Assembly (NCBI GenBank): GCA_018057765.1
Contig: JAGPDB010000002.1
Location: forward strand, 32,138-96,137
DNA from: Acidimicrobiia bacterium
GTDB lineage: Bacteria; Actinomycetota; Acidimicrobiia; IMCC26256; JAGPDB01
DNA: 64,000 nt
Direction: 5' to 3'
Below the pieces are notes generated by a model. That model worked only from the letters and a program-made list of their open reading frames with translations, searched no databases and had not been told where the DNA came from. The number at the start of each line of letters is the position of its first letter. Position 1 is the stretch's first letter. The translations under genes were made by a program, and so were the position numbers. This document shows, one piece after another, positions 771-62,286 of this stretch.

Positions 771-772
771 GA

Positions 773-7147: not shown

Positions 7148-7268
7148 GTATATTATTATACAGACACTATTAGAATTGTACAATATGTATAAATAATTGA
7201 TTCTTATCATCATTTCGCCTTTAATAACTTATACAAGCTACGAGCTTGTGGTATTTAAGGACGAGATT

Positions 7269-34019: not shown

Positions 34020-35591
34020 CTATTTTACTAGGACTATTAATTCACCGACTCTGGCAATAATTCCGGGAAAGAAACCGAGCAAAATTGTAACTCCAGCACA
34101 TAATACTATCGCTACTCGAAGTGCTGGAGTTATTACGACAGTAGATTTTTTATCAGCCAACAAAAGAGATCCTTCACTCGTCTCTGGCTGATCAAATAAA
34201 TCTAATTCAGCTGGGTCTTCAAGCCACATGCGCTTTATAATTCCTGCATAATATGTAAATGCAACAACTGAAGTTACAGCTGCAACAATAGCGAGAGTAA
34301 TAGAAGCTACAGAATTGATTTCCAATGCTGCTTTAAACATCACAAATTTTGCAAACCAACCAGCCAAAGGTGGAACACCAGCTAAAGAAAATAAGAAAAT
34401 TGTCAACATTAGAGACAAGAAAGGTTCACGTCTTCCTAGACCATTATATTTTGCTATATCGCCAGAATTAATTCGTCGAGAAATTGCAATAATGCTCGCA
34501 AAGGCTCCTAAGTTAGCGAATAAATAAATCGCTAAATAAATATAAGTTGATTGAACTGCGCTGTTAAAAAATTCATTAGTTCCCAAGGTCGACGTTTTTG
34601 AATTATCGCCATAACCCAATAAAGCAATTGGCAATAAAATAAATCCACCTTGAGCAATTGAGGAATACGCTAACATGCGAACAATATTTGTTTGTTTTAA
34701 TGCAGCAAAGTTTCCGATAATTAAAGATGCTACAACCATTACTGACAGTATTGGCATCCAAATTTCTCTTTCATTTAAAAATGCATACTGGCCTAAAGCT
34801 AAGATACCGACAAAACCAGCACCCTTTGAAAGTACACTTAAAAATGCAGTAACTGGTGTAGGTGCCCCTTCATATACATCTGGTGTCCATTGATGAAAAG
34901 GAACTGAAGAAATTTTGAAAGCAAAACCAATTACGGTAAAGATCACTGCTAAGTGAGCCAAAATAGGGATGTTGTTGCCATAAAAATATTTTTGAATATC
35001 AACAAATTTTGTTGAACCTACAAAACCAACGACAAAGCTCATCCCATAGAGCATTATTGCAGAACTCATAACACCAATTAAATAATATTTTATTCCAGCC
35101 TCATTAGATTTAAGATCACGTTTTCGCCAAGATGCCAAGACGAATGTTGGAATAGTAACAGTCTCGATAGAAACAAATAGAGAGATCAAATCTCGCGACG
35201 ATGAAAGGGTGCTCATACCCAATACTGACATTGTAAGCAAGAACCAAAACTCGGCCTGGAAATAATCTCCTTCGCGAATATAATCCCCACTTAGTAGCAC
35301 GGAAATATACGCACCAACTAAAAAGAATGCTTTAAAAGCCAGCGCTTGATTATCAACAATGTACGAACCGCCAAACATTGATCTGTTTGTTCCATCAATA
35401 GCTAAAGTTATTACTGGAATCAATGCCACTAAAAAAGTTAATGCAGCTATATTTGATGTTTTCCATGATGAACGTTTCTTTAAGAAAAGATCAGCAATCA
35501 AAATTGTTAATGCACCAATTATAATAACGACTTCTGGCGCAAATGCGTGCCAGTCAATCATTGGCGATTTCTGTATAACTATAGCTAACAT
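34020..35591 (-). CDS. nuoN: NADH-quinone oxidoreductase subunit N (cluster 1)
   Basis: A 523-aa polytopic antiporter-like subunit. Last gene of the 11-gene nuo array. Confidence 0.85.
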   Translation of the reverse strand: MLAIVIQKSPMIDWHAFAPEVVIIIGALTILIADLFLKKRSSWKTSNIAALTFLVALIPVITLAIDGTNRSMFGGSYIVDNQALAFKAFFLVGAYISVLLSGDYIREGDYFQAEFWFLLTMSVLGMSTLSSSRDLISLFVSIETVTIPTFVLASWRKRDLKSNEAGIKYYLIGVMSSAIMLYGMSFVVGFVGSTKFVDIQKYFYGNNIPILAHLAVIFTVIGFAFKISSVPFHQWTPDVYEGAPTPVTAFLSVLSKGAGFVGILALGQYAFLNEREIWMPILSVMVVASLIIGNFAALKQTNIVRMLAYSSIAQGGFILLPIALLGYGDNSKTSTLGTNEFFNSAVQSTYIYLAIYLFANLGAFASIIAISRRINSGDIAKYNGLGRREPFLSLMLTIFLFSLAGVPPLAGWFAKFVMFKAALEINSVASITLAIVAAVTSVVAFTYYAGIIKRMWLEDPAELDLFDQPETSEGSLLLADKKSTVVITPALRVAIVLCAGVTILLGFFPGIIARVGELIVLVK

Positions 35592-35594
35592 TAT

Positions 35595-37109
35595 TTATGC
35601 TCCAAAAAGTGCAGCAACTGGTGTTGCGAAATATTTGAATAGTAAATCTGGATAAACACCAAATATAAAAATTGGTATCAATATTGGGGTCCAAGCAAGC
35701 CATTCACTTATATGAACGTCATGGATTTCTTTATCTTTAAACTCGTCATTAACTTCACCAAATGCAACTCTTTGGAACATCCACAATAAATAGGCGGCAG
35801 CTAGAACTGTACCAACGGCAGCAACGACCATGTAGAACCTAAATAGAGGAACACTTAAACCAGGAGCAGGACTAAAGGCACTCAATACTGCTGGAAATTC
35901 TCCCCAGAAGCCAGCCAAGCCAGGAAGGCCAAGTGAAGCCATACAGCAAAGACCGAACAACCAACCCATCTTTGGAATTTGTTTTAGCATACCACCAAGT
36001 CGTGACATTTCACGTGTGTGATATCTGTGTTGAACAGAACCACCAATAAAAAACAACATACCAGTAATTAGACCGTGTGCAAACATTCCAAACAAGGCTG
36101 CATTCATACCGAATTCAGTTCCTGTTGAAATAGCCAACATAACAAAACCCATATGGGCAACTGAAGAAAATGCAATCAAACGTTTCATATCGCTTTGTGC
36201 CAAACAACATAGGGAACCATATATAATACCTATCACTGCCAGACCACCGATATATGGTGACCATGAAGTAAATGCCTTTGGCAATATTGGAATAGCGATC
36301 TTAATAAAACCGTATGTACCAAGCTTTAGCAAAATAGCAGCAAGTATAACTGAACCCTGTGTTGGAGCTTCAGTATGAGCATCTGGTAGCCAAGTATGAA
36401 ACGGGAACATAGGCACTTTAATCGCAAAACCAAGGAACAATCCGCCAAATATTATTAAGCCAGTAGTCTTTGCAATATTTAGCTGACCTGATTGGGCCAT
36501 TGCTGTCAATTCTGGAATTGAGAAGGTATGGCCTCCCTTAAAGAATAGCGCTAAGAAACCTAGAAGCATCATGGCAGAACCGAATAGTGTGAACAAGAAA
36601 AATTTGAGTGAGGCGTATTTACGATTCGAACCACCCCAAACACCAATTAGAAAGAACATTGGAAGTAAAACGATTTCGAAGAAAACAAAGAATAAGATTA
36701 GATCTTGAGCGACGAAAGTACCGTTCATTCCGACTTCTAATAAAAGTGTCATTGCTAGAAATGCTTTTGGAGTCCGCGGGTCTGGGAAATGATCCCAAGA
36801 ATATATGATTACAGATAAGGTAATAAGCATTGAAAGAATCAGCATTGGCAAACCAATACCATCTAGTCCAATTTCGTAGCGAGCATTAATAAGTGGTATC
36901 CACGCTTTATTTCGACCGAACTGTAAGCCTTCTTGGCCAATATTATATCTCACTAATATAGCTATACCTACACCTAGAGTTGCTATTGCTGTACCTAAAG
37001 CAATGGATTTAGCCACCACCTCATTTTTTTTAGGTGTCAGTAAAACACCTACCATTCCAGCTAGTGGAATGAATACTGCCAATGTGAGAGAGATTTTGTC
37101 GAAGTTCAC
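35595..37109 (-). CDS. nuoM: NADH-quinone oxidoreductase subunit M (cluster 1)
   Basis: 504 aa. Mrp-antiporter-like. Positioned between nuoL and nuoN. Confidence 0.85.
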   Translation of the reverse strand: MNFDKISLTLAVFIPLAGMVGVLLTPKKNEVVAKSIALGTAIATLGVGIAILVRYNIGQEGLQFGRNKAWIPLINARYEIGLDGIGLPMLILSMLITLSVIIYSWDHFPDPRTPKAFLAMTLLLEVGMNGTFVAQDLILFFVFFEIVLLPMFFLIGVWGGSNRKYASLKFFLFTLFGSAMMLLGFLALFFKGGHTFSIPELTAMAQSGQLNIAKTTGLIIFGGLFLGFAIKVPMFPFHTWLPDAHTEAPTQGSVILAAILLKLGTYGFIKIAIPILPKAFTSWSPYIGGLAVIGIIYGSLCCLAQSDMKRLIAFSSVAHMGFVMLAISTGTEFGMNAALFGMFAHGLITGMLFFIGGSVQHRYHTREMSRLGGMLKQIPKMGWLFGLCCMASLGLPGLAGFWGEFPAVLSAFSPAPGLSVPLFRFYMVVAAVGTVLAAAYLLWMFQRVAFGEVNDEFKDKEIHDVHISEWLAWTPILIPIFIFGVYPDLLFKYFATPVAALFGA

Positions 37110-37128
37110 TTTATCTCTACCTTTCTTA

Positions 37129-39273
37129 TTATCTACTTATAAAAATTATTATTGCACTTAAAACTAATACACCACTAAATAAAAATATTGCATAACGTTG
37201 TAGTTTTCCGCTTTGAACTTTTGTTAAAACCGAACCTGTTCCTTGAGAAGTTGAAGCTAAACCATTTACGATCCCGTCAACACCTTTTTGATCAATTTTC
37301 TCGTAAGTAAACGTACCAATTTTTGCAGTAATTTTACCTACGCCATTAACAAAAGCGTTAATTATATTGTCGTTAGTCCAAAGAACAGCATTAGAGATTT
37401 GCTTTTTAAGTCCACCAACAATTATGTCAGTGTAAAGAACATCTAAGAAATATTTCTTTTCTAAAAATGTGTATCCTGCCTTAGCGATTTTGCTTTTTTT
37501 AGTTAAATCAATAAAGCCGATTTTTTTCCAATAGTAAAGATAAGTAACTAAAATACCAAACAGTCCACATGCAGTAGCAATACCAGCATCTATCCAAGAA
37601 AATTCAGCATGAGATATAAACGCACCTGCACCTTGGACTAATCCCTCTAATGGAAACGCTCCTTTAGGTTCAACCCATTCTTTAAATTTCTCAATACCAA
37701 ACGGTGTAGCATTTAATAGTCCTGCAAAAATTGAGAATATCGCCAAGATTATTAAAGGAATTGTTATAGCTTTAGGCGATTCGTGCGGGTGATGATGTCC
37801 TCTATATTCACCGAAGAAAGTTAGATAAACACAACGTGTCATATATGCAGCGGTCAATATAGCACCTGCTAGACCAACATAAACGAAAAATTGATAACCA
37901 TTATGGCCAACGTTTGCCAAGATTTCATCTTTTGACCAGAAACCAGCAAATGGGAATATGCCAGCAAGCGCTGCAGTACCAATCATGAAAGTAGTAAAAG
38001 TTACTGGCATCAATTTACGAAGCCCACCCATATCTTTTTTCATTTCAAAAGAATGATGAGATCCACTATGTGCGACAGATCCTGCGCCTAAGAATAATAA
38101 AGCTTTGAAAAATGCGTGTGTAAATAGATGGAATACTGCAGCTACCCAAGCGCCAGATCCAAGCGCCATAACCATATAGCCAAGTTGTGAAATTGTTGAA
38201 TATGCCAATACTTTTTTGATATCACTTTGCACAAAGGCCAAAACAGCACCAGCGATAATAGTTATACCACCAATAAGAATCATAGGATTCAAACCAGTTT
38301 CACCAATATTGAAACCTTCCCAAAAGATAGGAAAAACGCGAGCACCAAGATAAACACCAGCAACAACCATAGTTGCAGCATGGATAAGCGCAGAAACAGG
38401 AGTTGGACCAGCCATAGCATCAGGCAGCCAAGTATGTAGAGGAAATTGTCCCGACTTGCCCATGATACCTAGCAATAGGGCAAGAGCCGTCATAAGTATT
38501 AATGTGTGACCAACTTTTCCAGAAAGGGCAGCATTATTAATTGAAAGAATTGAGAAAGATCCAGAACCAGTTGCACGTTGCACGATAAAGAATGTCATTA
38601 CAACACCAGTTAATAACCCAATATCACCAAAACGAGTAGTGAAGAAAGCTTTTAGGGCAGCATTTGAATTTTCTTTTTCTTCCCACCAATGCCCAATGAG
38701 CATAAATGAACATAGTCCAACGAGTTCCCAACCGAGCAACAATTGCAAAGTATTACTTGCAACTATAAGCATCATCATTGAAGCTGTAAAAAGAGATAGC
38801 GCTGCATAATAATGCGTATATCTAATATCACCTTTTAAATATTCAGTCGAATAGATATGTACGAGTGTAGAAATTACACCTACAACAATTAACATCATTA
38901 CTGCAAGGCCATCAATCTGAGTACCAGCTTCTAGTTTTAAAACACCAAAACGTAACCAAGTATAAGCCTGACCATAAACTTTTGACTCGTCAGCAAAATT
39001 TATCCATTGATAAGCAGCCATTATTGCATAAGCTAAAACAGCTACCAATGCAGTAATGCCAATTTCATGCCCTCCTTTTGGAAGTTTCTTACCAAAAAAT
39101 AAAATCAAAAAGAAACTAACGAGAGGAATTAAAACTATCAGCCAAGCATGTGTTAAAAACCAAGGACCTTGTGAACTTAATGAAGTAATCTTTTCACCTA
39201 AGTGATGTGCGCCTTCAGCTGACTCGCCTTCTCCACCTTGCAAAAGGTTAGTTAACAATATAGAACTAATCAT
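37129..39273 (-). CDS. nuoL: NADH-quinone oxidoreductase subunit L (cluster 1), long form of 714 aa
   Basis: Antiporter-like core plus a C-terminal long horizontal helix/TM. Follows nuoK. Confidence 0.85.
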   Translation of the reverse strand: MISSILLTNLLQGGEGESAEGAHHLGEKITSLSSQGPWFLTHAWLIVLIPLVSFFLILFFGKKLPKGGHEIGITALVAVLAYAIMAAYQWINFADESKVYGQAYTWLRFGVLKLEAGTQIDGLAVMMLIVVGVISTLVHIYSTEYLKGDIRYTHYYAALSLFTASMMMLIVASNTLQLLLGWELVGLCSFMLIGHWWEEKENSNAALKAFFTTRFGDIGLLTGVVMTFFIVQRATGSGSFSILSINNAALSGKVGHTLILMTALALLLGIMGKSGQFPLHTWLPDAMAGPTPVSALIHAATMVVAGVYLGARVFPIFWEGFNIGETGLNPMILIGGITIIAGAVLAFVQSDIKKVLAYSTISQLGYMVMALGSGAWVAAVFHLFTHAFFKALLFLGAGSVAHSGSHHSFEMKKDMGGLRKLMPVTFTTFMIGTAALAGIFPFAGFWSKDEILANVGHNGYQFFVYVGLAGAILTAAYMTRCVYLTFFGEYRGHHHPHESPKAITIPLIILAIFSIFAGLLNATPFGIEKFKEWVEPKGAFPLEGLVQGAGAFISHAEFSWIDAGIATACGLFGILVTYLYYWKKIGFIDLTKKSKIAKAGYTFLEKKYFLDVLYTDIIVGGLKKQISNAVLWTNDNIINAFVNGVGKITAKIGTFTYEKIDQKGVDGIVNGLASTSQGTGSVLTKVQSGKLQRYAIFLFSGVLVLSAIIIFISR

Positions 39274-39275
39274 TT

Positions 39276-39575
39276 TTAACCCTTCAACTTATCTAATTCA
39301 TCAAGATTTGGAGATTTCTTGTTACGAGCAATAAGTAAAACTAAACCTAAGCCTACGCATATTTCAGCTGCAGCAATAGTAATTACAAATACTGCAAAAG
39401 TATTACCAACAACGTTTTGTGAAAATTGTGAAAAAGCAATAAGGTTTAAGTTCACTGCATTAAGCATCAACTCAATACTCATTAAGACCAAGATTCCATT
39501 CTTTCTTGCAATAATCCCATACATCCCACAAGAAAAAAGAAACGCGCTAACTATTAAAATCATATTAATTTGCAT
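39276..39575 (-). CDS. nuoK: NADH-quinone oxidoreductase subunit K (cluster 1)
   Basis: 99 aa, 3 TM helices. Conserved Glu-containing helices (ELMLNAVNL). Confidence 0.85.
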   Translation of the reverse strand: MQINMILIVSAFLFSCGMYGIIARKNGILVLMSIELMLNAVNLNLIAFSQFSQNVVGNTFAVFVITIAAAEICVGLGLVLLIARNKKSPNLDELDKLKG

Positions 39576-39576
39576 C

Positions 39577-40095
39577 TCAGTCCTTCCTCGCTAAAACAAC
39601 CGCGCCAATTAAAGCTGCTAAAAGCAAAACTCCGACTAACTCAAAGGCAAAGACATTATCGAAAATGAGTGAATTGCTTAATGCATCCATACGGCCATTT
39701 GCTAAAGTACTATTCACACTTGTACCACTGATTGCAATTTTCTCCTTATTATCAAATGCCTTAATAATAAGAGTTGATATTAATGCGAATGTTGCTAACG
39801 ATACTATATAAGCAGGTATACGATTTTTATTATCTAAATCTTCGTTATCTCCCATAGGTGAGCGAGTTAACATTATGCCGAATAGCAAAAGTACCATTAC
39901 TGCACCTATGTAAATAAGTATCTGGACCCAAGCCAAAAATTCTGCAGCAATCAATAAATATATTCCAGCTATCGCACCCAAAACAGCTACTAAATATAAT
40001 GCAGCATGGACAATATTTGGTGTACGTACAACTGCAAAGCCACCTACACAAGCAACAATGCTTAAGAGAACAAAAATTACATTCTGTACTATCAT
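39577..40095 (-). CDS. nuoJ: NADH-quinone oxidoreductase subunit J (cluster 1)
   Basis: A 172-aa hydrophobic subunit between nuoI and nuoK. Confidence 0.8.
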
Positions 40096-40643
40096 TTTTT
40101 CTTCTTTACTTTTGCAGGAATTGCGCCTGCTTCAAGAGGCTCTGGCTCAGGTATTGTATCCATCCAATCAAAAAGTGTTTGTTTTTGGTGCAACAAATTA
40201 GCAATACGAAATTCACTATATTCAAATTCTGGTGACCAAAAAAGTGCATCGAAAGGACAAACCTCAACACAGATTCCACAATACATACAAAGGCTATAGT
40301 CAATGTCGAAACGATCCAAAATATTAACGTTACGTTCTTTACCACCTTCACGTCGAGGTGGTGCTTTTGTTTTATGTCCTTCAATATAGATACACCAGTC
40401 TGGGCAAGATCTAGAACATAACATACAAGCTGTGCAGTTTTCTTCGGAAAGAGCAATAACACCACGCGCACGTGGGGCAACTTCTTCTTTTTCATGAGGA
40501 TACTGAATAGTTACTGCAGGTTCCATCATTGTACGGAAAGGCACAGTTAAACCCTTGACCACACCTGGAATCTTTGGCTTTTTACTTTTTTTAGGTTTAT
40601 CACTCATATAAATCCTTCCGTTAATTCCAGACCATGAAAGCAC
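40092..40643 (-). CDS. nuoI: NADH-quinone oxidoreductase subunit I (cluster 1), a 2x[4Fe-4S] ferredoxin-like subunit
   Basis: Two CxxCxxCxxxCP motifs ([12 protein letters not shown] and [12 protein letters not shown]). Confidence 0.9.
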
Positions 40644-41667
40644 CAGTAACCAAAATATTTAATACTGATATTGGTATTAAATATTTCCATGCAAGGCTTT
40701 GAAGTTGGTCTTCTCTAAATCGCGGATAAGTAAATCGGGCCCAGAACATCAAAAATGCAATCAACATAATTTTTGTAAATAAAACTAGTGGTCCCAAAAA
40801 TTTCATATAGCTAGCGTCGAGTGGCACTCCTGGTAGTGACCATCCACCTAAAAATAATGTTGCCGAAATTGCTGAGAATGCAAAAGCGGTACCAAATTCA
40901 GCCATGAAGAAGAATAAGAATCTAAAACCTGTGTACTCAACCATATAGCCACCAACGAGTTCTGACTCAGCTACAGGCATATCAAATGGAGGCTGTGTTA
41001 ATTCTGCTTGTGAAGCAACCATGAACAATCCAAAACCAACAAACTGAGTTAAAATAAATGGATTACCTATTGCATGCAAACCAAAAATTGAACCTTCGTG
41101 TTGTGCTGCAACTATACCTTGTAAGTCTGCAGTACGTGCTTGCATAACAACACCTACAACAGCTAAAAGCAATGGAAGTTCATAGGCAATTAATTGAGCA
41201 GCAGCACGCAAAGCACCTAGTAAAGCAAACTTAGAAGCACTTGCCCACCCAGCCATCAAAACACCAATAACGCTTAATGATGAAACAGCCAGCGCATAAA
41301 AAACTCCAACATTTAAATTTCGTACTTGAAGATCAGGACCAACAGGAATAACGATATAAACCAAAAAGGTAGACATCAAAATAACAATAGGTGCCATTGC
41401 GAAAACTTTTTTATCAGCATCTTCTGGCATGATATCTTCTTTTTGCAAGAATTTTATACCGTCACCAACAAGTTGGAACCAACCATGAAATCCACCTGGG
41501 TCCATAGGACCTAAACGTGATTGCATATGACTCATCATTTTTAGAAGGAATACATAACCAAGAATTAAAGCACCTGCAGGGATAGTTCCTAAGACTATTG
41601 CAGTTTTAATTGCAGCTGTCCAGCCCCAACCTATCTCTAGAGCAAAAGTTACACCATGAGAAATCAT
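40621..41667 (-). CDS. nuoH: NADH-quinone oxidoreductase subunit H (cluster 1)
   Basis: Start MISHG (ATG at 41665-41667), overlapping the nuoD stop as ATGA, with a GGGAG RBS. Conserved MQSRLGP motif and 8 TM helices. Confidence 0.85.
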
Positions 41668-42842: not shown

Positions 42843-43528
42843 TATTCTTTAACCTCCGGCATAGCCTCAACATCTGTAAGGCCTGGCCATGGTTTTACAA
42901 CTCGTGCAAGTAGTGGAAAATCTTTTCTTAAAGGAAAGCCTTCAAATTCACCTGGTAAATATAAATGTCGAATTTCGGGATGACCTATAAAATCTATACC
43001 GTACATTTCCCATGTTTCACGTTCGTGCCAATCTGCTCCAGGAAATACATCAACAAAAGATGCGACACTAAAATTCTTAGTGTCGTTAGGATCATCACAA
43101 ACATCAACTTTGATTGTTATACCAAAATGTTTTGTTGTTGATTGTACATGTGAGAAAACTTGAAAACGAGTTTCTCCACCACCAACACCAACAGTTTGTT
43201 CTTTTGGTTGAGTCGGTTGTGCTGCTTCGCGATTAAAATCATCTTCGTTTACCGGCATCGGCATAAAATCTATTGCACTGACAAAAGACAAGAAGTCGCA
43301 ATCTAATTCTTCGTTTGTTATCTTCGCGGCCTTTGCATAACCAGCTTTTGTAACACGAATGATCAAATCACCATGATTCGATTCAAGTTGTAATAATTCT
43401 TTACCGAAGGCTTCTTTAACAGATGCAATTAATGTTTCTGATGGAGCATTTGTAGCCGAAGTCTCAATAGAAGACTGAGAGACTGAGCCAGCTTGTCGAA
43501 TCACGTCATCGGTAGAATCAACCATCAT
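42842..43528 (-). CDS. nuoC: NADH-quinone oxidoreductase subunit C (cluster 1)
   Basis: A 228-aa 30-kDa subunit with an N-terminal Ser/Thr-rich extension. Confidence 0.85.
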
Positions 43529-44576: not shown

Positions 44577-44715
44577 ATCCGAATGTGAGTCTATTAGGTT
44601 TTAAGTACATTTTCAGAAAATAAGGGGTAATTTTTTAAAAAAAACAGTTACTAGATATCAACGTTTTAATTACACGAGATTTTCTACCAAGAAAGTTGTT
44701 TTAAAGGTTAAGCGT

Positions 44716-45933: not shown

Positions 45934-45960
45934 GACAGGATATCAGCATGATCATACCTT

Positions 45961-54685: not shown

Positions 54686-54687
54686 GA

Positions 54688-57327
54688 TTATGCACCTTCC
54701 TTACTTGGATTTTCAAATCGCAAATCAGTAACTTCAAAATTATGATCTACAAGAATATTTAGTGGATGATCATTTGACAAGTTAGCAACTACAACTCCGC
54801 GCATAACAGAGTTATCTATTTTGAAGTTTACTTCAACGCTACCTTTATCATTTTTGAATTTAATCGATTTTGCGTCTTTATCAATGAAACCATCGATACT
54901 TCTTGAATTTACTCTTACGCTATATGTTTCATGTGTAGTTGAGACAAAATTTAACGAATCCGAATTATTAGATAAAGTTGATTTTTTGTAAAACTGTTTC
55001 TTGAATACTAGACGCAATGAATATTGATCCAAATGACGCGTATGGGATTTCTCTCGACTAAAAGGCTTAGTAATCATTTGTGCAAAATCTATATTTGCAC
55101 TTGGATGATGTTCCTCTTTATTTAATTCTTCTAATGGATTTTCGTGAACTACAGCGACAGACACAATCGGTTCCCATGACGGAGTATCAACAGAAATTGA
55201 ATCATTACCAACAAGTGAATCTTTATTTTCAATTACAGGTAAAATCGCTCCATCTCTAGCACGATCCAAAACTGTTGTGGATAGATGCGCAAAACTAGTT
55301 GCTACTCTTGAAATTTCATTTGTAATATCATCCACTGTATTAATAAAATGTTCACAACCTAAGCGCTTAGAAAGCATGGCTGCTATTTGCCAATCATTTA
55401 ATATATTTCCTTGTGGAGCAACTACTTGTGAAACGCGCTGAACACGAGATTCAATATTTGTAACTGTTCCAGATTTCTCTGAAAAAGTTGTTGTAGGCAA
55501 GAAGATATTTGCAAACTTAGTAGATTCATTCTCAAATATATCTACAGCTATTATTGTTTCGATACATCTAAATGCATTTTCTACAAGATCTTTATCTCCT
55601 ACAGAAGCAAATGGATTAGCACCTATAAGAAAAAGAACTTTTATGTCTCCCCTCGATGCAGCTTTTAATATTTCAATAGTGTTTTCTCCACTATTTTGAG
55701 AATAATCACTTGCTGGCCAAGAAGGTACAATATTAGAATTCTGCTCAACACGGCCCGGAAGTAACGACGGAGCAAAACCCATTTCAAAGGCTCCAAGTAT
55801 ATTCGATGTCGAGTGTGAAGGTAAATAATATATATCCTGATTCTCTAATAAGTTTTGAACTAATTCAATAAATGAACTTGGATCTTGTGCTTGGTTTATA
55901 TCACCAGCAATAAGAATTATTTTCGAATTTGAATCACCATTGACTTCTTTAATACTTGAGACTGCATCTTCGATTTCTTTTAGTACTGAAATTTCATTAC
56001 CAGGAATCAATTCAATTTGTGTATTACTTAAACTGGACATCGAAGTAGCGAAGGAATTTACTTCAACCAACTTTGCTTTGCTCTCTTTAACTGCTTTTCT
56101 TAGACGTAAATAAAGAACAGGTAGAGTTTCTTTAATATCGCAACCCAATGTAATTATTGCGCTAGCTTTATCTAAGTCACTAATGCGTGCACGCTTTGAA
56201 GAAAAGATAATATCAGCAGGAACAACATTTTCACATACGTCTATCCGATTCGTTCCAACTACGGATTTAGCTAAACGGGTAAATTCGTATGCATCTTCAT
56301 TTGTACCACGTGATCCGCCTAAAAATGCAATCGATTTATCACCAAAAATATCTTTAGCATTTTTGGTAGCTTCAGCTGCAAGATCTAGAGCAGTATTATA
56401 ATTTACTTTTTCTTTTTCGCTATTTATATTTAAAATATAAGGAGAAAGTATTCGATTATCTGATTGCGTATAATCATAGCCGTATCTACCTTTATCGCAA
56501 AGCCAACCTTGATTCACTTGCTCTGAGTCAACACCCAAAAATCTTACCATTTCGTTTCGTGATGTTTGGGCAACACCGCGACATCCAACCGAACATCCAG
56601 AACATGTAGTTTCAATAGATGCTAGATCCCATGGTCGTGAACTAAAACGGTAGGGTTTTGCTGTAAGCGCGCCCACTGGACATATTTGAACTATGTTTCC
56701 AGAGAAGTATGATGCAAATTCGTCATCAGGAAAAGTATTTACTTCTGTATGCTGACCACGCTCAGCAAATGTTATCAATGGGTCACCAGCAACATCGTCG
56801 GCAAAACGTGTACATCGCGCACACTGTATACAGCGTTCGCGATCTAATAATACATGATCAGAAATTTCAATTGGTTTTTCCCAATGACGCTTTTCTTCTT
56901 CAAAACGTGACTCACCAGGACCAAATGCAAGAGTCTGATCTTGCAAAGGGCATTCTCCACCACGGTCACAAACAGGACAATCGAGTGGATGGTTGATCAA
57001 TAAAAACTCAAGTACACCCTCTTGTACTTTTTCAACATTATCTTTTTGAAAATGAATAACTTGGTCTTGCGAAACAGGAGTCGTACAAGAAGGTGGCATA
57101 CCGCGTACACCTTCAATTTCCACTAAACACATTCTGCACATACCAACTGGTTCTAGTCGATCATGGTAACAAAAACGTGGAATAAAAATACCAGCATTTT
57201 GGGCAGCTTTTATTATTAGCTCTCCCTTTTTTGCCACAACTAAATTTCCATCAATCATTAAAGATACTTCATCATCTTTTAAATTTGAAGTATCAAGTTG
57301 TGTTGGCACGGGTGGTGTAGTTGTCAT
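54688..57327 (-). CDS. nuoG: NADH-quinone oxidoreductase subunit G (cluster 2), 879 aa
   Basis: An N-terminal 2Fe-2S region (CYHDRLEPVGMCRMCLVEIEG), 4Fe-4S motifs (CIQCARCTRF and CPVGAL) and a molybdopterin-like domain. Confidence 0.9.
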   Translation of the reverse strand: MTTTPPVPTQLDTSNLKDDEVSLMIDGNLVVAKKGELIIKAAQNAGIFIPRFCYHDRLEPVGMCRMCLVEIEGVRGMPPSCTTPVSQDQVIHFQKDNVEKVQEGVLEFLLINHPLDCPVCDRGGECPLQDQTLAFGPGESRFEEEKRHWEKPIEISDHVLLDRERCIQCARCTRFADDVAGDPLITFAERGQHTEVNTFPDDEFASYFSGNIVQICPVGALTAKPYRFSSRPWDLASIETTCSGCSVGCRGVAQTSRNEMVRFLGVDSEQVNQGWLCDKGRYGYDYTQSDNRILSPYILNINSEKEKVNYNTALDLAAEATKNAKDIFGDKSIAFLGGSRGTNEDAYEFTRLAKSVVGTNRIDVCENVVPADIIFSSKRARISDLDKASAIITLGCDIKETLPVLYLRLRKAVKESKAKLVEVNSFATSMSSLSNTQIELIPGNEISVLKEIEDAVSSIKEVNGDSNSKIILIAGDINQAQDPSSFIELVQNLLENQDIYYLPSHSTSNILGAFEMGFAPSLLPGRVEQNSNIVPSWPASDYSQNSGENTIEILKAASRGDIKVLFLIGANPFASVGDKDLVENAFRCIETIIAVDIFENESTKFANIFLPTTTFSEKSGTVTNIESRVQRVSQVVAPQGNILNDWQIAAMLSKRLGCEHFINTVDDITNEISRVATSFAHLSTTVLDRARDGAILPVIENKDSLVGNDSISVDTPSWEPIVSVAVVHENPLEELNKEEHHPSANIDFAQMITKPFSREKSHTRHLDQYSLRLVFKKQFYKKSTLSNNSDSLNFVSTTHETYSVRVNSRSIDGFIDKDAKSIKFKNDKGSVEVNFKIDNSVMRGVVVANLSNDHPLNILVDHNFEVTDLRFENPSKEGA

Positions 57328-57329
57328 TT

Positions 57330-58703
57330 TTATATTTCTACCTTTTTATTAGAGCCTGTACCTCTTTGAGCTTGACTCGCAAGGTCAGATCCTATCTCAT
57401 TATCAACTGTTTGGTTTACAGGTGATATGCGCTTAAGTACTTCATCTTTAAAAAATTTATTCAAACTGACAATACAAGAAACCGCACTTGGCCCAAGTGG
57501 ACAAATTGTTGTTTGAGAGAATGGTGCATTTAATCCGGGAGAAATATTATCGCCAATATCTAAAAGCATATCTAAATCTGTTGGTCGTCCCTCATTATGC
57601 AATATCCTATATAAAACTTTCTCCAGCCAACCCGTTCCTTCGCGACACGGTGTACATTTACCACAACTTTCATGAGCGTAGAATTTAGCTAACCTCCAGG
57701 CAACTAATACTGGATCTGTGCTTTGGTCATATACCATTATTGCACCAGAACCAAGCATGACACCAAAACGTTGTCCAACTTCGTCCATATCAAGAGGACA
57801 GTCTAAGTGTTCATCTGATCCTATAAGCCATTGTGATGATCCTCCACCAGGAATAAAAAACTTTATTTTTCCATTATTTTTAATACCACCAGCAAGATCA
57901 TCAATTAGTTGTCGAAAGGTACAACCAAGTTCAACTTCATAATTACCCGGTTTATTAACATGTCCAGAAACAGAAAAGATTCTTGTACCCGTTGATTTAT
58001 TAACACCTAGTTCACCATATTTAGCTCCGCCCATTTCTAAGATATGAGGCACAGTTGATATTGTTTCAACATTATTTACAACAGTAGGTTTTGCATATAG
58101 GCCAGCAATAGCTGGAAATGGAGGTCGGATTCGAGGCATCCCTCGTTCGCCTTCAAGCGATTCTATTAATGCTGTTTCTTCCCCACAAATATATGCTCCT
58201 GCACCACGATGAACAACTATCTCAAGATCATAATCAGAACCAAAAATATTTTTACCAACAAAACCTTTTGATCGTGCATCTGATATTGCATTGACTACTC
58301 GATCATATGCAAGAGCTAACTCCCCACGCAAATATATGAAGGCAAGATTACTTTGAATTGCAAACGCAGAACATATAATTCCCTCTACGAGTTGATGCGG
58401 ATCATTTGTTAATAACATATTGTCTTTAAAAGTAGATGGCTCACCCTCGTCTGCATTTATAACTAAATATCTTGGGAAAGAATCTGGTGCCAAAAATGAC
58501 CATTTTAATCCCGTAGGGAATCCTCCACCACCACGACCACGCAAACCTGATGCCTTTACTTCTTCAATAATAAAAGCAGGATCTAAAGTTAATGCCTTCT
58601 TAGCAATTTCGTACCCACCACTAGCAATATATTCATCTATCAGATGATTATTCTCATTTTCGCGAAGCCGCTTAGTAATAATTCGTGTTTCTTTCAGGGC
58701 CAT
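57330..58703 (-). CDS. nuoF: NADH-quinone oxidoreductase subunit F (cluster 2)
   Basis: An FMN/NADH site (RGRGGGGFPTGLKW) and the N3 cluster (ESCGKCTPCREG). Confidence 0.92.
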   Translation of the reverse strand: MALKETRIITKRLRENENNHLIDEYIASGGYEIAKKALTLDPAFIIEEVKASGLRGRGGGGFPTGLKWSFLAPDSFPRYLVINADEGEPSTFKDNMLLTNDPHQLVEGIICSAFAIQSNLAFIYLRGELALAYDRVVNAISDARSKGFVGKNIFGSDYDLEIVVHRGAGAYICGEETALIESLEGERGMPRIRPPFPAIAGLYAKPTVVNNVETISTVPHILEMGGAKYGELGVNKSTGTRIFSVSGHVNKPGNYEVELGCTFRQLIDDLAGGIKNNGKIKFFIPGGGSSQWLIGSDEHLDCPLDMDEVGQRFGVMLGSGAIMVYDQSTDPVLVAWRLAKFYAHESCGKCTPCREGTGWLEKVLYRILHNEGRPTDLDMLLDIGDNISPGLNAPFSQTTICPLGPSAVSCIVSLNKFFKDEVLKRISPVNQTVDNEIGSDLASQAQRGTGSNKKVEI

Positions 58704-59323
58704 CAGTTGTCACCCTCTGTACCATCATGTGAGCGAACATCTGGAGTGAGGTTCGAGACTACAGGCTCGACACGTCCCGAAGGGCTCGAAGCAGTGAGTG
58801 GTAATGAAGGAACAGAAGTACCAACCTCAAAAGTTCCTTGCAAACTCCCCGATATAGAACGAGCGACACGTGCCCCTGACTTATAATCCTCAACCACGTC
58901 AATTGCTTCTTGTGGGGTGACATTTTCCACGAATTCATAATTGACTTGAAAACAAGGAGCTCCATCGCATTTAGCCAGACATTCAACTTCTTCTACAGTT
59001 ACATCATCATCTGTTAAATATTTTTTAGTTAAAGTTTCATGTATTTCTGGTCCGCCTAAAACAAGACAAGTTACATTTGTACAAACAGATACTAAATATT
59101 TACCAACAGGCTCACGTTTAAACATTGTGTAAAAACTACATGTACCTTGAACTTGTGCTGCTGTTACATCTACTAATTTTGCAATTTCGCGCATTGCTTC
59201 TGGGGAAAGCCAGCCGTCTTGATCTTGAGCTAGATGCGCTAAAGGTAAGATAGCGGATTTTTTATTTGGATATTGTGAAATTATTTGTTTAGATTGCTCG
59301 AGATTTTTTTCCGTAAACGCCAT
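58703..59323 (-). CDS. nuoE: NADH-quinone oxidoreductase subunit E (cluster 2)
   Basis: A thioredoxin-like [2Fe-2S] subunit with Cys in VSVCTNVTCLVLGG and CLAKCDGAPC. Confidence 0.88.
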   Translation of the reverse strand: MAFTEKNLEQSKQIISQYPNKKSAILPLAHLAQDQDGWLSPEAMREIAKLVDVTAAQVQGTCSFYTMFKREPVGKYLVSVCTNVTCLVLGGPEIHETLTKKYLTDDDVTVEEVECLAKCDGAPCFQVNYEFVENVTPQEAIDVVEDYKSGARVARSISGSLQGTFEVGTSVPSLPLTASSPSGRVEPVVSNLTPDVRSHDGTEGDN

Positions 59324-60681
59324 TATCTATCTACCTCTCCCATAATAGGATCAACGCTGGAAATTACAGCAACAGCATCTGCCAGGTAACGTCCTTGCAT
59401 CATTGGGCTCATGGTTTGCAAATTATAAAAACTTGGTCCTCTAATGTGCATACGTAAAGGCTTAGGTTCACTATCGGCGACAATATAACATCCAATTTCT
59501 CCACGTGGAGATTCAACAGCCATATAGGTCTCACCTGCAGGAACTTTAAAACCCTCAGTAAAAATTTTAAAATGGTGAATTAGTGCTTCCATGGATTCGT
59601 CAATACGTTGACGAGGCGGAGGTGTAACTTTTTTATCTTGAACACGAAAATCACCGAGTGGCATTTTATCTACACATTGGCGGACTATTTTTACAGATTC
59701 TAAAATTTCATATAACCTAATTCGATAACGGTCGAATACATCGCCATTTTCTGTTGTTATAACATCAAACTCAACTTCATTATATGCCAAATAAGGTTGT
59801 TCTTTTCGTAAATCCCAAGCATAGCCTGTTGATCGCAATATTGGTCCCGTAGCACTTAACCCTAGAGCATCTTCGGTCGATAAGATACCTACACCAACCA
59901 TGCGCTCACGATATATTGGGTTAGCGCTTAACAATAAATCATATTGTTTAACACCTTTTTCGACCATGTCACAAATCTCTAAAACATCTTTTTTCCAACC
60001 ATCAGGAAGATCTGCTGCTATTCCGCCGACACGGATAAAGTTATGGTTCATTCTTAAACCAGTTATCTTTTCTAATAATCTCAGTACTTCTTCGCGTTCA
60101 CGCCAACCATAAATCATCATCGAAACCGCACCAACATCCATACCATTTGTTGCCTGAAATAGTAAGTGTGATGAAATCCTGTTTAACTCAACTAACATCA
60201 TTCGAGCCCATGTTGCACGTGCAGGTATTTCTATATCTAATAATTTTTCAGCGGCTAAAGAATATACAAGTTCATTTGATAATGGTGACGCGTAATCCAT
60301 ACGGGTTACATTTGTGCAACCTTGAACATAAGTCAGTTCTTCACCAGTTTTTTCCATTCCAGTATGGAGGTATCCGATGATTGGTTTTGAATCTATAACT
60401 GTTTCGCCATCTAATTCCATCATCACACGAAGGACACCATGTGTTGAAGGATGTTGTGGACCCATGTTTATAAGCATTGTCTCATCGAGATCGCCATCTG
60501 GCCATGGGCCTCCTGCAAATACTATTTCTTTTTTCTTTAAGGTTTGTGAACCCTCATCTGTTTGAGCAAAAAGTCTATCGTTTGCATTTTCGTGAAAAAT
60601 ATTGTCTTGGGATGCGAGAAATTCTTGTTTTTCATCATCTGTATTCTCATCGAATATATCTTTATTTAGTTCTTGATCCAT
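59323..60681 (-). CDS. nuoD: NADH-quinone oxidoreductase subunit D (cluster 2), with an N-terminal extension
   Basis: 452 aa. NMGPQHPSTHGVLRV. Confidence 0.9.
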   Translation of the reverse strand: MDQELNKDIFDENTDDEKQEFLASQDNIFHENANDRLFAQTDEGSQTLKKKEIVFAGGPWPDGDLDETMLINMGPQHPSTHGVLRVMMELDGETVIDSKPIIGYLHTGMEKTGEELTYVQGCTNVTRMDYASPLSNELVYSLAAEKLLDIEIPARATWARMMLVELNRISSHLLFQATNGMDVGAVSMMIYGWREREEVLRLLEKITGLRMNHNFIRVGGIAADLPDGWKKDVLEICDMVEKGVKQYDLLLSANPIYRERMVGVGILSTEDALGLSATGPILRSTGYAWDLRKEQPYLAYNEVEFDVITTENGDVFDRYRIRLYEILESVKIVRQCVDKMPLGDFRVQDKKVTPPPRQRIDESMEALIHHFKIFTEGFKVPAGETYMAVESPRGEIGCYIVADSEPKPLRMHIRGPSFYNLQTMSPMMQGRYLADAVAVISSVDPIMGEVDR

Positions 60682-61250
60682 TAGCTAAAATCTCGCTTTT
60701 CAACGGGGTGTGACTGGTCTTGCTTTGCAATAGAAGGATCCGATTTCGAATCTCGTGGTAAATCATCTGTAAAATTAACTGGAATCCTCGCTGGCGTATC
60801 ATCTTTACGAAGTGGATAACCTATCCATTCTTCAGGCATTAGTATTCTAGACATTTCTTCATGTCCATCAAAAGTTATACCGAACATGTCGTATACTTCG
60901 CGCTCTGCAAAATTTGCGCCAGGAAATATATCCATTATTGAATCAACATTTGTTTTATTTTCATTAACTGGAACAATAAGTCGTATTCTTTCATTGCGTT
61001 TGTGAGAAATAAAATTAGATACAATTTCAAAACGTTCTAATGATACTCCAGCTATACTTATTCTTTCATGTGCACCATGAAAATCCACTGCAGTAACATC
61101 TATGCACATAATTACATCACACTGATCTTTTAGGAATCTAACTATGTCTTTATAATCAGTTTTGCTTGCGTAAATGACGTCCTGTCCATGTGAATCTGTT
61201 GGTATTACATTAACAAATTTTTCTATTACACTACTAGACAAGGAATTCAT
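60681..61250 (-). CDS. nuoC: NADH-quinone oxidoreductase subunit C (cluster 2)
   Basis: 189 aa, 30-kDa subunit family, between nuoB and nuoD. Confidence 0.85.
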
Positions 61251-61825
61251 GATTTAACCTTTCGAACTGTAGGGTTCGGTAAGGGTTTTCCGCTGGCAGT
61301 TTGACCATCTATTTGAGGAATAATTATTCCTGCACCTGTTCTATTTTCGCTACGACGTTTTAAAATATCTCCATTTTTTACTTGCTCATGGAGAGTTAAA
61401 ATACCATGTATCAAAGTCTCAGGCCCTGGAGGACAACCAGGTACGTACACATCAACTGGAACTATTTGATCCACCCCTTGGACAATGGCGTAATTATTAA
61501 ACATTCCACCGCTAGAAGCACAAACACCCATTGAAATAACCCATTTTGGTTCTGCCATCTGATCGTATACTTGACGTAATACTGGTGCCATTTTCTGACT
61601 TACTCTACCAGCAACTATCATCAAGTCTGCTTGACGCGGAGAAGCGCGAAATACTTCCATTCCAAATCGAGCAATATCATAGTGAGCAGCTCCAGATGCC
61701 ATCATCTCGATTGCACAACATGCTAATCCAAAAGTTGCAGGCCACATAGAATTTTTTCTTGCCCATTGAACCATGTCTTCTAAACGACCGGTCAAAAAGT
61801 TATGTGATACTGATTCTAAACCCAT
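61247..61825 (-). CDS. nuoB: NADH-quinone oxidoreductase subunit B (cluster 2)
   Basis: [17 protein letters not shown] and GCPPGP. Confidence 0.9.
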
Positions 61826-62286
61826 TATTTTTCACCTCGAACGAAACCCTCTGAGCGGATTATTGGTTTTACGATTTTTGATTTTCTTGATGTCAAGGGT
61901 CCAAAATTTAAAACTCCACTAGATAATAAATAGGCAAAAGGAAAAAGGAGAACAATCAAAAATATTCCCATAACAGCTAGACCAGCCGAACCTAAACCGG
62001 CAATCTCTATTCCATTAGGGAATGTTCTACGTACAAATATTGTCGCAAATGGATATAGAAATATTATTTCAACATCGATAACTATAAAAGCTATTGCAAG
62101 CAAATAGAATTTTACAGAAAATCTTTCCTGCGTGTCTTTTTCTGGGATTATTCCACATTCATAAGGTGCAGTTTTTGCCATAGTTCTTCGTTTTGGACCC
62201 AAAAGAATTGAGGCAGCAAAAGAAGCAAAAACAAATATTAGCGCTATAACTAAAAGTATTAAAATAGGTTGATAAGAACGAAGCAT
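61825..62286 (-). CDS. nuoA: NADH-quinone oxidoreductase subunit A (cluster 2)
   Basis: 153 aa. [15 protein letters not shown] motif. First gene of the operon. Confidence 0.85.

Follow-up and report, generated by a model that had tools for sequence, protein, structure and literature searches.

An N-module-less complex I-like gene cluster in tandem with a 14-subunit nuo operon in an Acidimicrobiia bacterium

Gene content and divergence of the two operons

Two complex I operons lie in tandem on the minus strand of the window, the whole 64-kb stretch of DNA analyzed, which derives from an Acidimicrobiia MAG of low GC content (36%). Cluster 1 (34020-44576) is located 2.3 kb downstream of cluster 2 and harbors 11 genes in the order nuoA-B-C-D-H-I-J-K-L-M-N; cluster 2 (46864-62286) is a complete nuoA-N set of 14 genes, NuoE, NuoF and NuoG included (Table 1). 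Each gene of both clusters matched the expected Pfam family, and the 11-gene plus 14-gene arrangement described in a sequence-only reading was borne out in position as well as in family. The junctions within cluster 1 are tight or overlapping. The ATGA overlap proposed for nuoD1 and nuoH1 was read directly in the sequence (...GAC AGA TGA, with the ATG at 41667-41665) and agrees with the public-assembly gene calls, which also give a NuoH1 of 348 aa. A gene for an NDUFAF7/MidA-like methyltransferase (PF02636, 39.2 bits versus a cut-off of 23.3) follows nuoN1 after 52 nt on the same strand. Between the operons, the patatin-like phospholipase gene is convergent with nuoN2, overlaps its 3' end by 6 nt and occupies the same spacer position in many Acidimicrobiia loci. 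The 405-aa ORF next to it matched no Pfam or NCBIfam family and had no homologue in the best 80 of 594 related loci, but was found also in identical-sequence assemblies; it is probably lineage-specific and not an enzyme component.

Table 1. Features of the two nuo clusters and flanking genes.
Feature	Coordinates	Strand	Description
NDUFAF7/MidA-like SAM-dependent methyltransferase	32894..33967	-	357 aa; PF02636
nuoN1	34020..35591	-	523 aa; antiporter-like subunit; PF00361
nuoM1	35595..37109	-	504 aa; antiporter-like subunit; PF00361
nuoL1	37129..39273	-	714 aa; antiporter-like subunit; PF00361, PF00662, PF01010
nuoK1	39276..39575	-	99 aa; PF00420
nuoJ1	39577..40095	-	172 aa; PF00499
nuoI1	40092..40607	-	171 aa (longest ORF from 40643); Fer4 families
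nuoH1	40621..41667	-	348 aa from ATG 41667; PF00146, 320 bits
nuoD1	41664..42842	-	392 aa; PF00346; RW-type
nuoC1	42842..43528	-	228 aa; PF00329; ~30-aa insertion inside 30-kDa domain
nuoB1	43525..44154	-	209 aa; carrier of cluster N2; PF01058
nuoA1	44145..44576	-	143 aa (120-aa start in other gene calls); PF00507, 107.5 bits
405-aa ORF	44716..45933	-	no family match; 139 nt upstream of nuoA1
patatin-like phospholipase	45961..46869	+	PF01734; spacer gene between operons
nuoN2	46864..48339	-	PF00361
nuoM2	48336..49865	-	PF00361, PF01059
nuoL2	49862..51823	-	PF00361, PF00662, PF01010
nuoK2	51823..52152	-	PF00420
nuoJ2	52149..52790	-	PF00499
nuoI2	52790..53392	-	Fer4 families; CxxCxxCxxxCP motif x2
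nuoH2	53393..54685	-	PF00146
nuoG2	54688..57327	-	PF13510, PF10588, PF22117, PF00384
nuoF2	57330..58703	-	NADH/FMN site; PF01512 + PF10589 + SLBB (Complex1_51K, NADH_4Fe-4S)
nuoE2	58703..59323	-	PF01257 (2Fe-2S_thioredx)
nuoD2	59323..60681	-	452 aa; PF00346, 372 bits
nuoC2	60681..61250	-	PF00329
nuoB2	61247..61825	-	PF01058; N2 ligand motifs present
nuoA2	61825..62286	-	PF00507

Amino acid identity between the clusters amounts to 46.6% (NuoB), 40.5% (NuoH), 40.2% (NuoM), 39.8% (NuoK), 39.7% (NuoD), 37.5% (NuoL), 36.9% (NuoJ), 32.3% (NuoN), 31.7% (NuoA), 30.1% (NuoC) and 27.0% (NuoI). This range of 27-47% lies below the 50-60% that had been estimated by eye. Near-identical nucleotide sequence is likewise absent, as blastn aligned short stretches only, the longest being 394 nt at 68%. 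Searches with NuoE2, NuoF2 and NuoG2 (tblastn) across the whole window retrieved cluster 2 alone, all other matches having E >= 0.027, and neither frameshifts nor EFG remnants occur in cluster 1, which confirms that it lacks nuoEFG. The best PDB match of NuoD2 was M. smegmatis NuoD (8e9g, 422 bits), assigning it to the mycobacterial-type 14-subunit group, whereas NuoD1 was closest to T. thermophilus Nqo4 and cyanobacterial NdhH and reached only 269 bits with M. smegmatis. The two proteins also fell into different clades of an NJ tree. The same layout is present on a 919,934-bp NCBI contig (GCA_037046625.1) and in three more independent assemblies. The clusters are therefore old divergent paralogues, as had been suggested. 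Cluster 2 encodes an ordinary actinobacterial 14-subunit NADH:menaquinone oxidoreductase, and cluster 1 an actinobacterial N-module-less complex I-like enzyme.

Redox sites, pump residues and quinone pocket of cluster 1

The Q-module of cluster 1 contains three [4Fe-4S] sites. NuoB1 carries the N2 ligand motifs (tandem CC38-39, GACANSG and CPP135), and NuoI1, which scores about 100 bits on NuoI NCBIfam models, has the motif CxxCxxCxxxCP twice, corresponding to two [4Fe-4S] motifs. The pump residues, a TM5 Glu, a TM7 Lys and a TM12 Lys/Glu/Lys, are conserved in NuoL1 (E183, K273, K448), NuoM1 (E145, K231, E404) and NuoN1 (E143, K226, K415). NuoK1 retains two membrane Glu residues, both aligned to those of NuoK2, and NuoA1 a conserved D/E pair in 'FDVEAIF'.

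The quinone site of NuoD1 was mapped by a gapless alignment to T. thermophilus Nqo4, in which H45 corresponds to His38, W94 to Tyr87 and Q146 to Asp139. H45, R71 and W94 are invariant over 80 orthologues; all 80 thus share the Trp at the position of the quinone-binding Tyr, and in 79 of them the partner Asp is replaced by Gln. All examined members of the actinobacterial NuoD1 clade have the Trp, and the further Trp-bearing NuoD sequences in the alignment are archaeal fused C/D proteins of the methanogen lineages Methanofastidiosia and Methanonatronarchaeales. NuoD2 keeps the canonical His, Tyr and Asp. The quinone-binding Tyr of complex I has been called "strictly conserved", and this residue and the Asp are thought to protonate the quinone and to trigger coupling (PMC8119997). 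Since Trp94 and Gln146 would remodel the pocket, quinone binding and protonation in the cluster 1 enzyme are probably unlike those of canonical complex I.

The best PDB relatives of the methyltransferase are 4f3n (COG1565), 5ztz (NDUFAF7 homologue) and 1zkd (DUF185). Its gene comes after nuoN1 in about 44 of the best 80 of 594 loci and in most Acidimicrobiia loci. In three of three Nocardioidaceae-type genomes a PF02636 gene adjoins a stand-alone RW-type nuoD. The target of NDUFAF7 is the Arg of an HRGxE motif (PMC3829151; PMC8042128). NuoD1 contains R71 within HRGYEK, and the Arg is kept in 80 of 80 orthologues; NuoD2 reads HTGMEK and, having Thr at this position, would not be a substrate. 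Homology and gene linkage suggest that the methyltransferase dimethylates NuoD1 Arg71, beside cluster N2, during assembly.

Electron donor and acceptor

The enzyme encoded by cluster 1 is proposed to pump protons while electrons pass from a donor other than NADH to the membrane quinone pool. If cyanobacterial NDH-1, FpoF-less Fpo and the models put forward for enzymes of Firmicutes and Bacteroides are taken as analogues, this donor would dock directly on NuoI1 and is most likely a reduced ferredoxin-type carrier. The complete explanation, i.e. an N-module-less proton pump with such a donor, a methylated Arg71 and a remodelled quinone pocket, appears to us somewhat better than an even proposition. 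Nothing in the window or the 80 best related loci points to a donor, as cluster 1 has no linked gene for a ferredoxin, flavodoxin, FpoF/FrhB or NdhS-like protein there. The ferredoxin gene at 18350-18604 to which the sequence-only reading had drawn attention is real (single-cluster type, Fer4_13/Fer4_15), but is separated from nuoN1 by 15.4 kb and by unrelated genes, so that a positional link did not hold. Most Acidimicrobiia are aerobic heterotrophs and would not obviously sustain a high flux of reduced ferredoxin, which weakens the case for such a donor.

Alternatively, NuoE2F2G2 might dock on either Q-module and thereby form a second NADH dehydrogenase isoform with other quinone-site or pumping properties, or single subunits might be swapped. 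Throughout the class the operons remain neighbors, in some species without a break between them, which would favor co-expression; parts shared between the two enzymes would fit this tight tandem layout equally well. Spero et al. raised a shared N-module for Syntrophobacter, whose genome has a single nuoEFG but the remaining genes twice (PMC4453560), and for Streptomyces a differential incorporation of subunits has been suggested (PMC3765725). However, divergence is greatest in the subunits contacting the N-module (NuoI 27%, NuoC 30%, compared with NuoB 47% and about 40% for NuoD, NuoH and NuoM). NuoC1 moreover carries an insertion of about 30 aa (151 residues over 121 PF00329 profile positions) that is kept in Acidimicrobiia orthologues, and NuoI1 a conserved C-terminal extension with a Lys-rich tail. 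These clade-specific additions and the divergence of both subunits fit a different partner at this surface. Other phyla run 11-subunit enzymes in genomes without any NuoEFG (PMC3144371, PMC11238625), and the sponge-associated loci L040-L054 and L080 contain no 14-gene operon within 10 kb upstream of cluster 1. Sharing of the N-module is thus unlikely.

F420H2 as the donor, with cluster 1 acting as an Fpo/Fqo-like F420H2:menaquinone oxidoreductase and an FpoF/FqoF-like subunit encoded elsewhere in the genome, is quite unlikely as well. It was proposed by Lopez-Perez et al. for the orthologous Ca. Actinomarinales cluster on the grounds that it shares <=35% identity with Fpo of M. mazei and that F420 biosynthesis is present (PMC7771536), and the archaeal affiliation of the other Trp-bearing NuoD proteins points the same way. 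However, 35% does not exceed the identity to any other complex I, and FrhB/FpoF-family genes are absent both from the 64-kb window and from the neighborhood of the cluster in related loci. By the curated NCBIfam cut-offs, NuoC1 and NuoI1 fall far short of FpoC (55.5 versus 220) and FpoI (56.9 versus 180). NuoD1 passes the generic NuoD model (413.5 versus 360) but neither FpoD (341.7 versus 600) nor NdhH (365.6 versus 583), which also speaks against the NDH/Fpo-like affiliation considered earlier.

The chemistry at the quinone end might also differ altogether, with another acceptor or a mainly reverse reaction in which the pmf drives electron transfer from menaquinol onto a low-potential carrier. 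That the enzyme works as an ordinary quinone reductase is not guaranteed, because the Trp and Gln replacements, the former fixed throughout the clade as examined, remove groups that have been called strictly conserved, or essential to the binding and protonation of quinone and to coupling. We nevertheless regard this as improbable, as the enzyme retains its beta1-beta2 loop His together with the N2 ligands and every pump residue, and no positive sign of another substrate emerged from this analysis. In Yarrowia, mutants with aromatic replacements of the quinone Tyr reportedly stayed active with short-chain quinones.

Conservation and known relatives

Conservation was assessed on the best 80 of 594 relatives, all from Acidimicrobiia/Actinomycetota with NuoD identities of 66-86%. 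Among these, nuoH directly follows nuoD in all 79 loci holding both (gap <=129 nt). The 14-gene operon precedes the 11-gene operon in 43 of the 58 loci with enough upstream flank, and at least nine of these 43 have a nuoN2-nuoA1 gap of <100 nt. Adjacency of the clusters is the sole point in favor of cluster 1 being a recent duplicate of cluster 2 with nuoEFG deleted, an assembly artefact or a decaying pseudo-operon, and this is refuted by the protein divergence and separate NuoD clades, the intact genes, the agreement of four independent assemblies and conservation over dozens of species of 36-70% GC. The cluster 1 operon is intact and evolves under purifying selection.

We found no report of the Trp for the quinone Tyr and the Gln for Asp in NuoD1, or of the methylation-target Arg in NuoD1 versus Thr in NuoD2, together with the methyltransferase gene beside the stand-alone nuoD of Nocardioidaceae-type genomes. 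The pairing of an 11-gene with a 14-gene operon is real but mostly an ordinary, published and conserved trait of Acidimicrobiia, and the earlier view that an 11-subunit enzyme is unusual here does not stand. The 11-subunit type has been published for actinobacteria in general (PMC3144371). Ca. Actinomarinales possess the same 11-gene operon with an NDUFAF7-like gene after nuoN and a nearby 14-subunit operon (PMC7771536; bioRxiv 10.1101/2021.02.01.429150), and their 'truncated nuo' is the orthologue of cluster 1. Streptomyces harbors a second, related nuo set (PMC3765725), and this nuoA2-N2 set is probably related to cluster 1. NuoD1 further shares its Trp-bearing clade with the stand-alone NuoD of Nocardioidaceae-type Actinomycetes.

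Gene content and conservation of the two nuo operons

All genes that the sequence-only reading had assigned to cluster 1, the 11-gene nuo operon without nuoEFG, and to cluster 2, the 14-gene nuoA-N operon, were recovered where it had placed them, all on the minus strand, and every assignment is backed by Pfam. Cluster 1 consists of 11 contiguous genes whose junctions range from overlaps to a 19-nt gap, and encodes an 11-subunit complex I in the sense of Moparthi and Hagerhall (2011). The fusion of nuoD1 to nuoH1 by an ATGA stop/start overlap (41664-41667) is also found in the gene calls of public contigs. Cluster 2 encodes the complete NuoA-N set of a canonical 14-subunit complex I, including the NADH/FMN subunit NuoF as well as NuoE and NuoG. 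A tblastn search of the whole window with NuoE2, NuoF2 and NuoG2 matched cluster 2 alone, which agrees with the claimed absence of nuoEFG near cluster 1 and rules out remnants of these genes within it. As had also been claimed, the clusters are not near-identical, since blastn between them yielded only short stretches of 68-70% identity. The estimate of 50-60% identity between paralogues was too high; the actual values span from 27% (NuoI) to 47% (NuoB).

The N2 ligands of NuoB1 (CC38-39, GACANSG and CPP135) and the N6a/N6b ligands of NuoI1 (two CxxCxxCxxxCP motifs) are intact. NuoL, NuoM and NuoN of cluster 1 keep the Glu of TM5, the Lys of TM7 and the Lys/Glu/Lys pattern of TM12, and the two Glu of NuoK1 and the D/E pair of NuoA1 are conserved. 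NuoD1 contains three cysteines in all and lacks the NiFe-ligand cysteine pairs (N-terminal motif region NRIDW, C-terminus ...FILGDIDR). Thus, the enzyme is not a group-4 hydrogenase. Two additions occur class-wide, a partly acidic insertion of about 30 residues in NuoC1 and a C-terminal extension of NuoI1 (...LLHDK..LGEWM.TVPEPEPLE...) with a Lys-rich end. Between positions 32700 and 47000, promoter-like sites were fewer than in shuffled sequences and terminators were at chance level.

The Acidimicrobiia MAG GCA_037046625.1 has an identical NuoD1 annotated on a contig of 919,934 bp, and the same gene order occurs in three more independent assemblies, which excludes an assembly artefact. A scan with one genome per species returned 594 NuoD1 relatives, of which the best 80, all from Acidimicrobiia or unclassified Actinomycetota, share 66-86% identity with NuoD1 (41-71% GC). 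The ORFs of these 80 loci were labelled by comparison with the window proteins. The gene nuoH directly follows nuoD, no more than 129 nt away, in all 79 loci harboring both. In 43 of the 58 loci whose flank is long enough, nuoM2/nuoN2 of the 14-subunit operon lie upstream of nuoA1, and at least nine species have a nuoN2-nuoA1 gap below 100 nt, resulting in a contiguous array of 25 nuo genes (loci L005-L037 and others). About 44 of the 80 loci also have a homologue of the methyltransferase gene downstream of cluster 1 after nuoN1. Loci L040-L054 and L080, which are sponge-associated, have no 14-subunit operon within 10 kb upstream of cluster 1 and no methyltransferase downstream. The layouts of the 80 loci indicate that the arrangement is an old, class-wide trait, of which the window represents a low-GC carrier.

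Features of the window and of three Nocardioidaceae-type loci (last three lines)
Feature	Position	Strand	Remarks
rplA, rplK, nusG, secE	81-6344		housekeeping
Four long ORFs, 387-619 aa	1318-3177, 7197-8810, 8877-10040, 22561-24147		no Pfam match
Single-cluster ferredoxin, Fer4_13/Fer4_15	18350-18604	-	beside BNR/sortilin-repeat protein and APH-family kinase
Sulfocyanin-like cupredoxin domain protein	26030-26524
DsbD/CcdA-type membrane protein	28407-29123
Thioredoxin/AhpC-like protein	29132-30268
NDUFAF7/MidA-like methyltransferase	32894-33967	-	after nuoN1; PF02636
Cluster 1, nuoA1-B1-C1-D1-H1-I1-J1-K1-L1-M1-N1	34020-44576	-	Pfam
NuoI1	40092-40607	-	C-terminal extension
NuoC1	42842-43528	-	insertion
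Orphan ORF, 405 aa	44716-45933	-	139 nt upstream of nuoA1; no Pfam/NCBIfam match
Patatin-like phospholipase	45961-46869	+	convergent with nuoN2, 3' overlap 6 nt
Cluster 2, nuoA-N including NuoE, NuoF, NuoG	46864-62286	-	Pfam
Three ORFs, 94, 268 and 133 aa	62302-63789	-	nearest ends 15 nt before nuoA2; no Pfam/NCBIfam match
PF02636 gene, L085	8596-9396		near stand-alone Trp-type nuoD
PF02636 gene, L086	2033-3007		near stand-alone Trp-type nuoD
PF02636 gene, L087	5016-6017		near stand-alone Trp-type nuoD

The patatin-like gene between the two operons is the usual spacer in other Acidimicrobiia. The 405-aa ORF beside it also occurs in the identical-sequence assemblies, and no homologue was located among the 80 related loci. 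It was rejected as a general extra subunit, as it has no family match, shows no Fe-S-like Cys pattern and is absent from all 80 loci. Three tightly packed, co-directional ORFs directly upstream of nuoA2 could share a transcript with the 14-gene operon. Elsewhere in the window, the genes for a cupredoxin domain protein, a DsbD/CcdA-type protein and a thioredoxin-like protein resemble a gene group for envelope redox functions or cytochrome maturation, and four long ORFs occur in otherwise housekeeping surroundings.

The quinone site of NuoD1 and the linked methyltransferase

The closest solved structure to NuoD2 is NuoD of M. smegmatis (422 bits), whereas NuoD1 matches the M. smegmatis protein with 269 bits only and is closest to Nqo4 of T. 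thermophilus (341 bits), followed by cyanobacterial NdhH (331 bits). A neighbour-joining tree, crude and without support values, was calculated from aligned 50%-identity cluster representatives matching NuoD1. In this tree NuoD1 belongs to a separate clade with its own sister group, and NuoD2 is placed far off among sequences with 'HTG...DY'. Cluster look-ups and a second search assigned the sister group to Nocardioidaceae/Propionibacteriales and Actinomycetales/Dermatophilaceae. NuoD1 scored 365.6 with the NdhH model NF005649 (cut-off 583), and with the Fpo/Fqo models the cluster 1 proteins likewise remained below the cut-offs, with 341.7 versus 600 for FpoD, 55.5 versus 220 for FpoC and 56.9 versus 180 for FpoI. 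By the NCBIfam cut-offs NuoD1 is classed as a generic NuoD and neither as NdhH nor as FpoD. Genes for extra small NDH-specific subunits such as NdhS were not found within or beside the cluster 1 operon, either in the window or in the 80 loci.

A gapless alignment with T. thermophilus Nqo4 places His45, Trp94 and Gln146 of NuoD1, encoded at 41664-42842, at the positions of His38, Tyr87 and Asp139. Thus, of the canonical Tyr, His and Asp at the quinone head group only the histidine is kept in NuoD1; all three are present in NuoD2. Among the best 80 of the 594 relatives, Trp94 occurs in all 80 Acidimicrobiia orthologues and Gln146 in 79, and the tryptophan is also shared by all 120 closest database proteins. 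The sister clade of Nocardioidaceae and Actinomycetales harbors Trp too, with a variable residue at the Asp position. Other named sequences with this tryptophan are only two archaeal C/D fusions, from Methanofastidiosia and Methanonatronarchaeales. The tyrosine is kept in all five NuoD homologues of solved complex I structures aligned to NuoD1 (NdhH is not among the five). In the literature this residue counts as strictly conserved and as essential to head-group binding, and one coupling model gives the His-Asp pair a central role (PMC8119997). NuoD1 carries a natural variant of residues held essential by current coupling models, and an enzyme functioning without this Tyr and Asp would constrain such models. 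A literature search with most subscription journals outside its coverage returned nothing relevant on a Tyr-to-Trp variant.

The ORF following nuoN1 belongs to the PF02636 family (score 39.2, cut-off 23.3), although the match is confined to the N-terminal half of the profile, about 105 of its 249 positions, and the sequence is very divergent. It contains the glycine-rich SAM-binding motif VIDAGCGPGSL, and its only meaningful PDB relatives are 4f3n (COG1565), 1zkd (DUF185) and 5ztz, the Dictyostelium NDUFAF7 homologue. NDUFAF7 dimethylates the Arg of the HRGxE motif, where T. thermophilus has Thr (PMC3829151; PMC8042128). NuoD1 contains HRGYEK, with Arg71 aligned to bovine Arg85, whereas NuoD2 contains HTGMEK, with Thr. 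In all three Nocardioidaceae-type genomes examined, a PF02636 gene is located near a stand-alone nuoD of the Trp type, i.e. with Trp at the quinone Tyr position, overlapping the nuoD start in one genome, separated by one gene in another and 3 kb away in the third. This linkage of methyltransferase and NuoD across two classes suggests that Arg71 is a likely substrate, and predicts a directly testable bacterial NDUFAF7 substrate.

It is conceivable, but in our estimate unlikely, that the actinobacterial enzymes without the NADH-binding N-module (NuoE/F/G) represent a mechanistically distinct branch of complex I. Such a branch would comprise cluster 1 of Acidimicrobiia and the Trp-type NuoD of Nocardioidaceae/Actinomycetales, with Trp throughout, Gln in Acidimicrobiia and a linked NDUFAF7-type methyltransferase. 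If so, the acceptor would be bound or protonated unlike in every characterised complex I, or the acceptor or the direction of the reaction would be another. The branch would then also offer a bacterial, genetically tractable system for mitochondrial-type NDUFAF7-dependent Arg methylation.

Candidate electron donors

The donor question concerns the N-module-less complex I of aerobic actinobacteria, organisms with abundant populations in oceans, lakes and soils. Neither the window nor the related loci point to a donor gene: genes for FpoF/FrhB, flavodoxin or NdhS-like proteins were not found in the 64-kb window or in the related loci, and a search of the 80 loci for conserved unlabelled neighbour genes, its result dominated by spurious ORFs of high-GC genomes, yielded no conserved redox partner. 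The ferredoxin on which the sequence-only reading had drawn is a genuine gene, but does not serve as a pointer to the donor, as its position links it to neither nuo operon. It lies 15.4 kb away, separated by unrelated genes (for the BNR/sortilin protein, a kinase, a permease and others), and no ferredoxin gene adjoins cluster 1 in the related loci.

By analogy only, a ferredoxin-type carrier that would dock on NuoI1 is considered the most likely donor. Ranked second of four is the sharing of the N-module with cluster 2, in which NuoEFG would be borrowed from the neighbouring operon. The tight tandem order argues mildly for some functional coupling of the two enzymes; however, the N-module-facing pairs NuoI and NuoC show the greatest divergence and bear clade-specific additions, which argues mildly against borrowing. 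Oxidation of F420H2 via an unlinked FpoF-like subunit is ranked third; neither FpoF nor FqoF is encoded in the 64-kb window. An altered acceptor or reverse operation is placed last.

Comparison with known systems

The closest counterpart is found in Ca. Actinomarinales. There, two nuo clusters, one of them without EFG, flank a heliorhodopsin gene, and use of F420 was speculated (Lopez-Perez et al. 2020, PMC7771536). The operon runs nuoA, B, C, D, H, I, J, K, L, M, N and then NDUFAF7 (PF02636), with a 14-subunit variant nearby (Bulzu et al. 2021, bioRxiv 10.1101/2021.02.01.429150). Shared features are the class Acidimicrobiia, the gene order with an NDUFAF7-like gene, the nearby 14-subunit operon and a low-GC streamlined genome. 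However, the operons are separated here by the patatin-like gene and the 405-aa ORF, and in Actinomarinales by heliorhodopsin, Fe3+ ABC transporter, ferrochelatase and repressor genes; the heliorhodopsin and Fe-transporter context is absent from the window. Unlike in Ca. Actinomarinales, no htpX, pspE or adenosine kinase gene follows the methyltransferase.

Streptomyces, likewise an actinobacterium, harbors besides nuoA-N an additional set that lacks N-module genes, consisting of nuoA2, B2, D2 and H2-N2 (PMC3765725). Its nuoD2 is detached, which resembles the stand-alone Trp-type nuoD near a PF02636 gene in Nocardioidaceae-type genomes. By the published description the Streptomyces set is non-contiguous and lacks nuoC2, whereas the 11 genes form one operon here. 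Actinobacteria have furthermore been counted among the carriers of 11-subunit enzymes in a study that found no common donor gene for them (Moparthi and Hagerhall 2011, PMC3144371).

The tandem of both operons with an NDUFAF7-like gene has thus already been published for Ca. Actinomarinales, a sister lineage, and is class-wide here. Together with the descriptions for actinobacteria and Streptomyces, this means that the finding as first stated was already known and adds little. The interpretation of cluster 1 as an ancient paralogue without N-module stands, but its rarity had been overstated and an unlinked ferredoxin relied on. A text search of PMC7771536 and bioRxiv 10.1101/2021.02.01.429150 found no mention of the Trp/Gln changes at the quinone site or of the Arg/Thr difference. 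The quinone-site residues, the Arg/Thr difference between the paralogues and the linkage of the methyltransferase to stand-alone nuoD were not found in the literature searched; further work might be worthwhile only on the quinone-pocket departures and on the link between methyltransferase and NuoD.

The 'ancestral' 11-subunit complex I of Bacteroidetes, Chlorobi, Firmicutes and Chloroflexi shares with cluster 1 the subunit set, the lack of an N-module and the absence of NiFe ligands from NuoD (PMC3144371; Desulfitobacterium, PMC11238625). Ferredoxin or several partners have been proposed as its donor (PMC3144371; PMC11238625). In contrast to the bacteria studied here, its hosts are mostly anaerobes or phototrophs without an adjoining second complete complex I, and neither an NDUFAF7 link nor Trp at the Tyr position has been described for these enzymes. 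Cyanobacterial and chloroplast NDH-1 shares eleven homologous core subunits and the concept of a ferredoxin-type donor, but has the extra subunits NdhL-S, V and O, including the ferredoxin-docking NdhS. Archaeal Fpo/Fqo shares a core without N-module, and some archaeal fused C/D subunits have Trp at the Tyr position; however, Fpo-specific NCBIfam cut-offs are not reached by the proteins of cluster 1, and no FpoF or FpoO is linked. The mitochondrial and alpha-proteobacterial NDUFAF7 (MidA), together with the dimethylation of Arg85 in NDUFS2, is paralleled by the PF02636 family of the methyltransferase and by the HRGxE Arg near N2 in NuoD1. The difference is that the NDUFAF7-like gene, with a predicted activity, is located here in an operon with a bacterial N-module-less enzyme.
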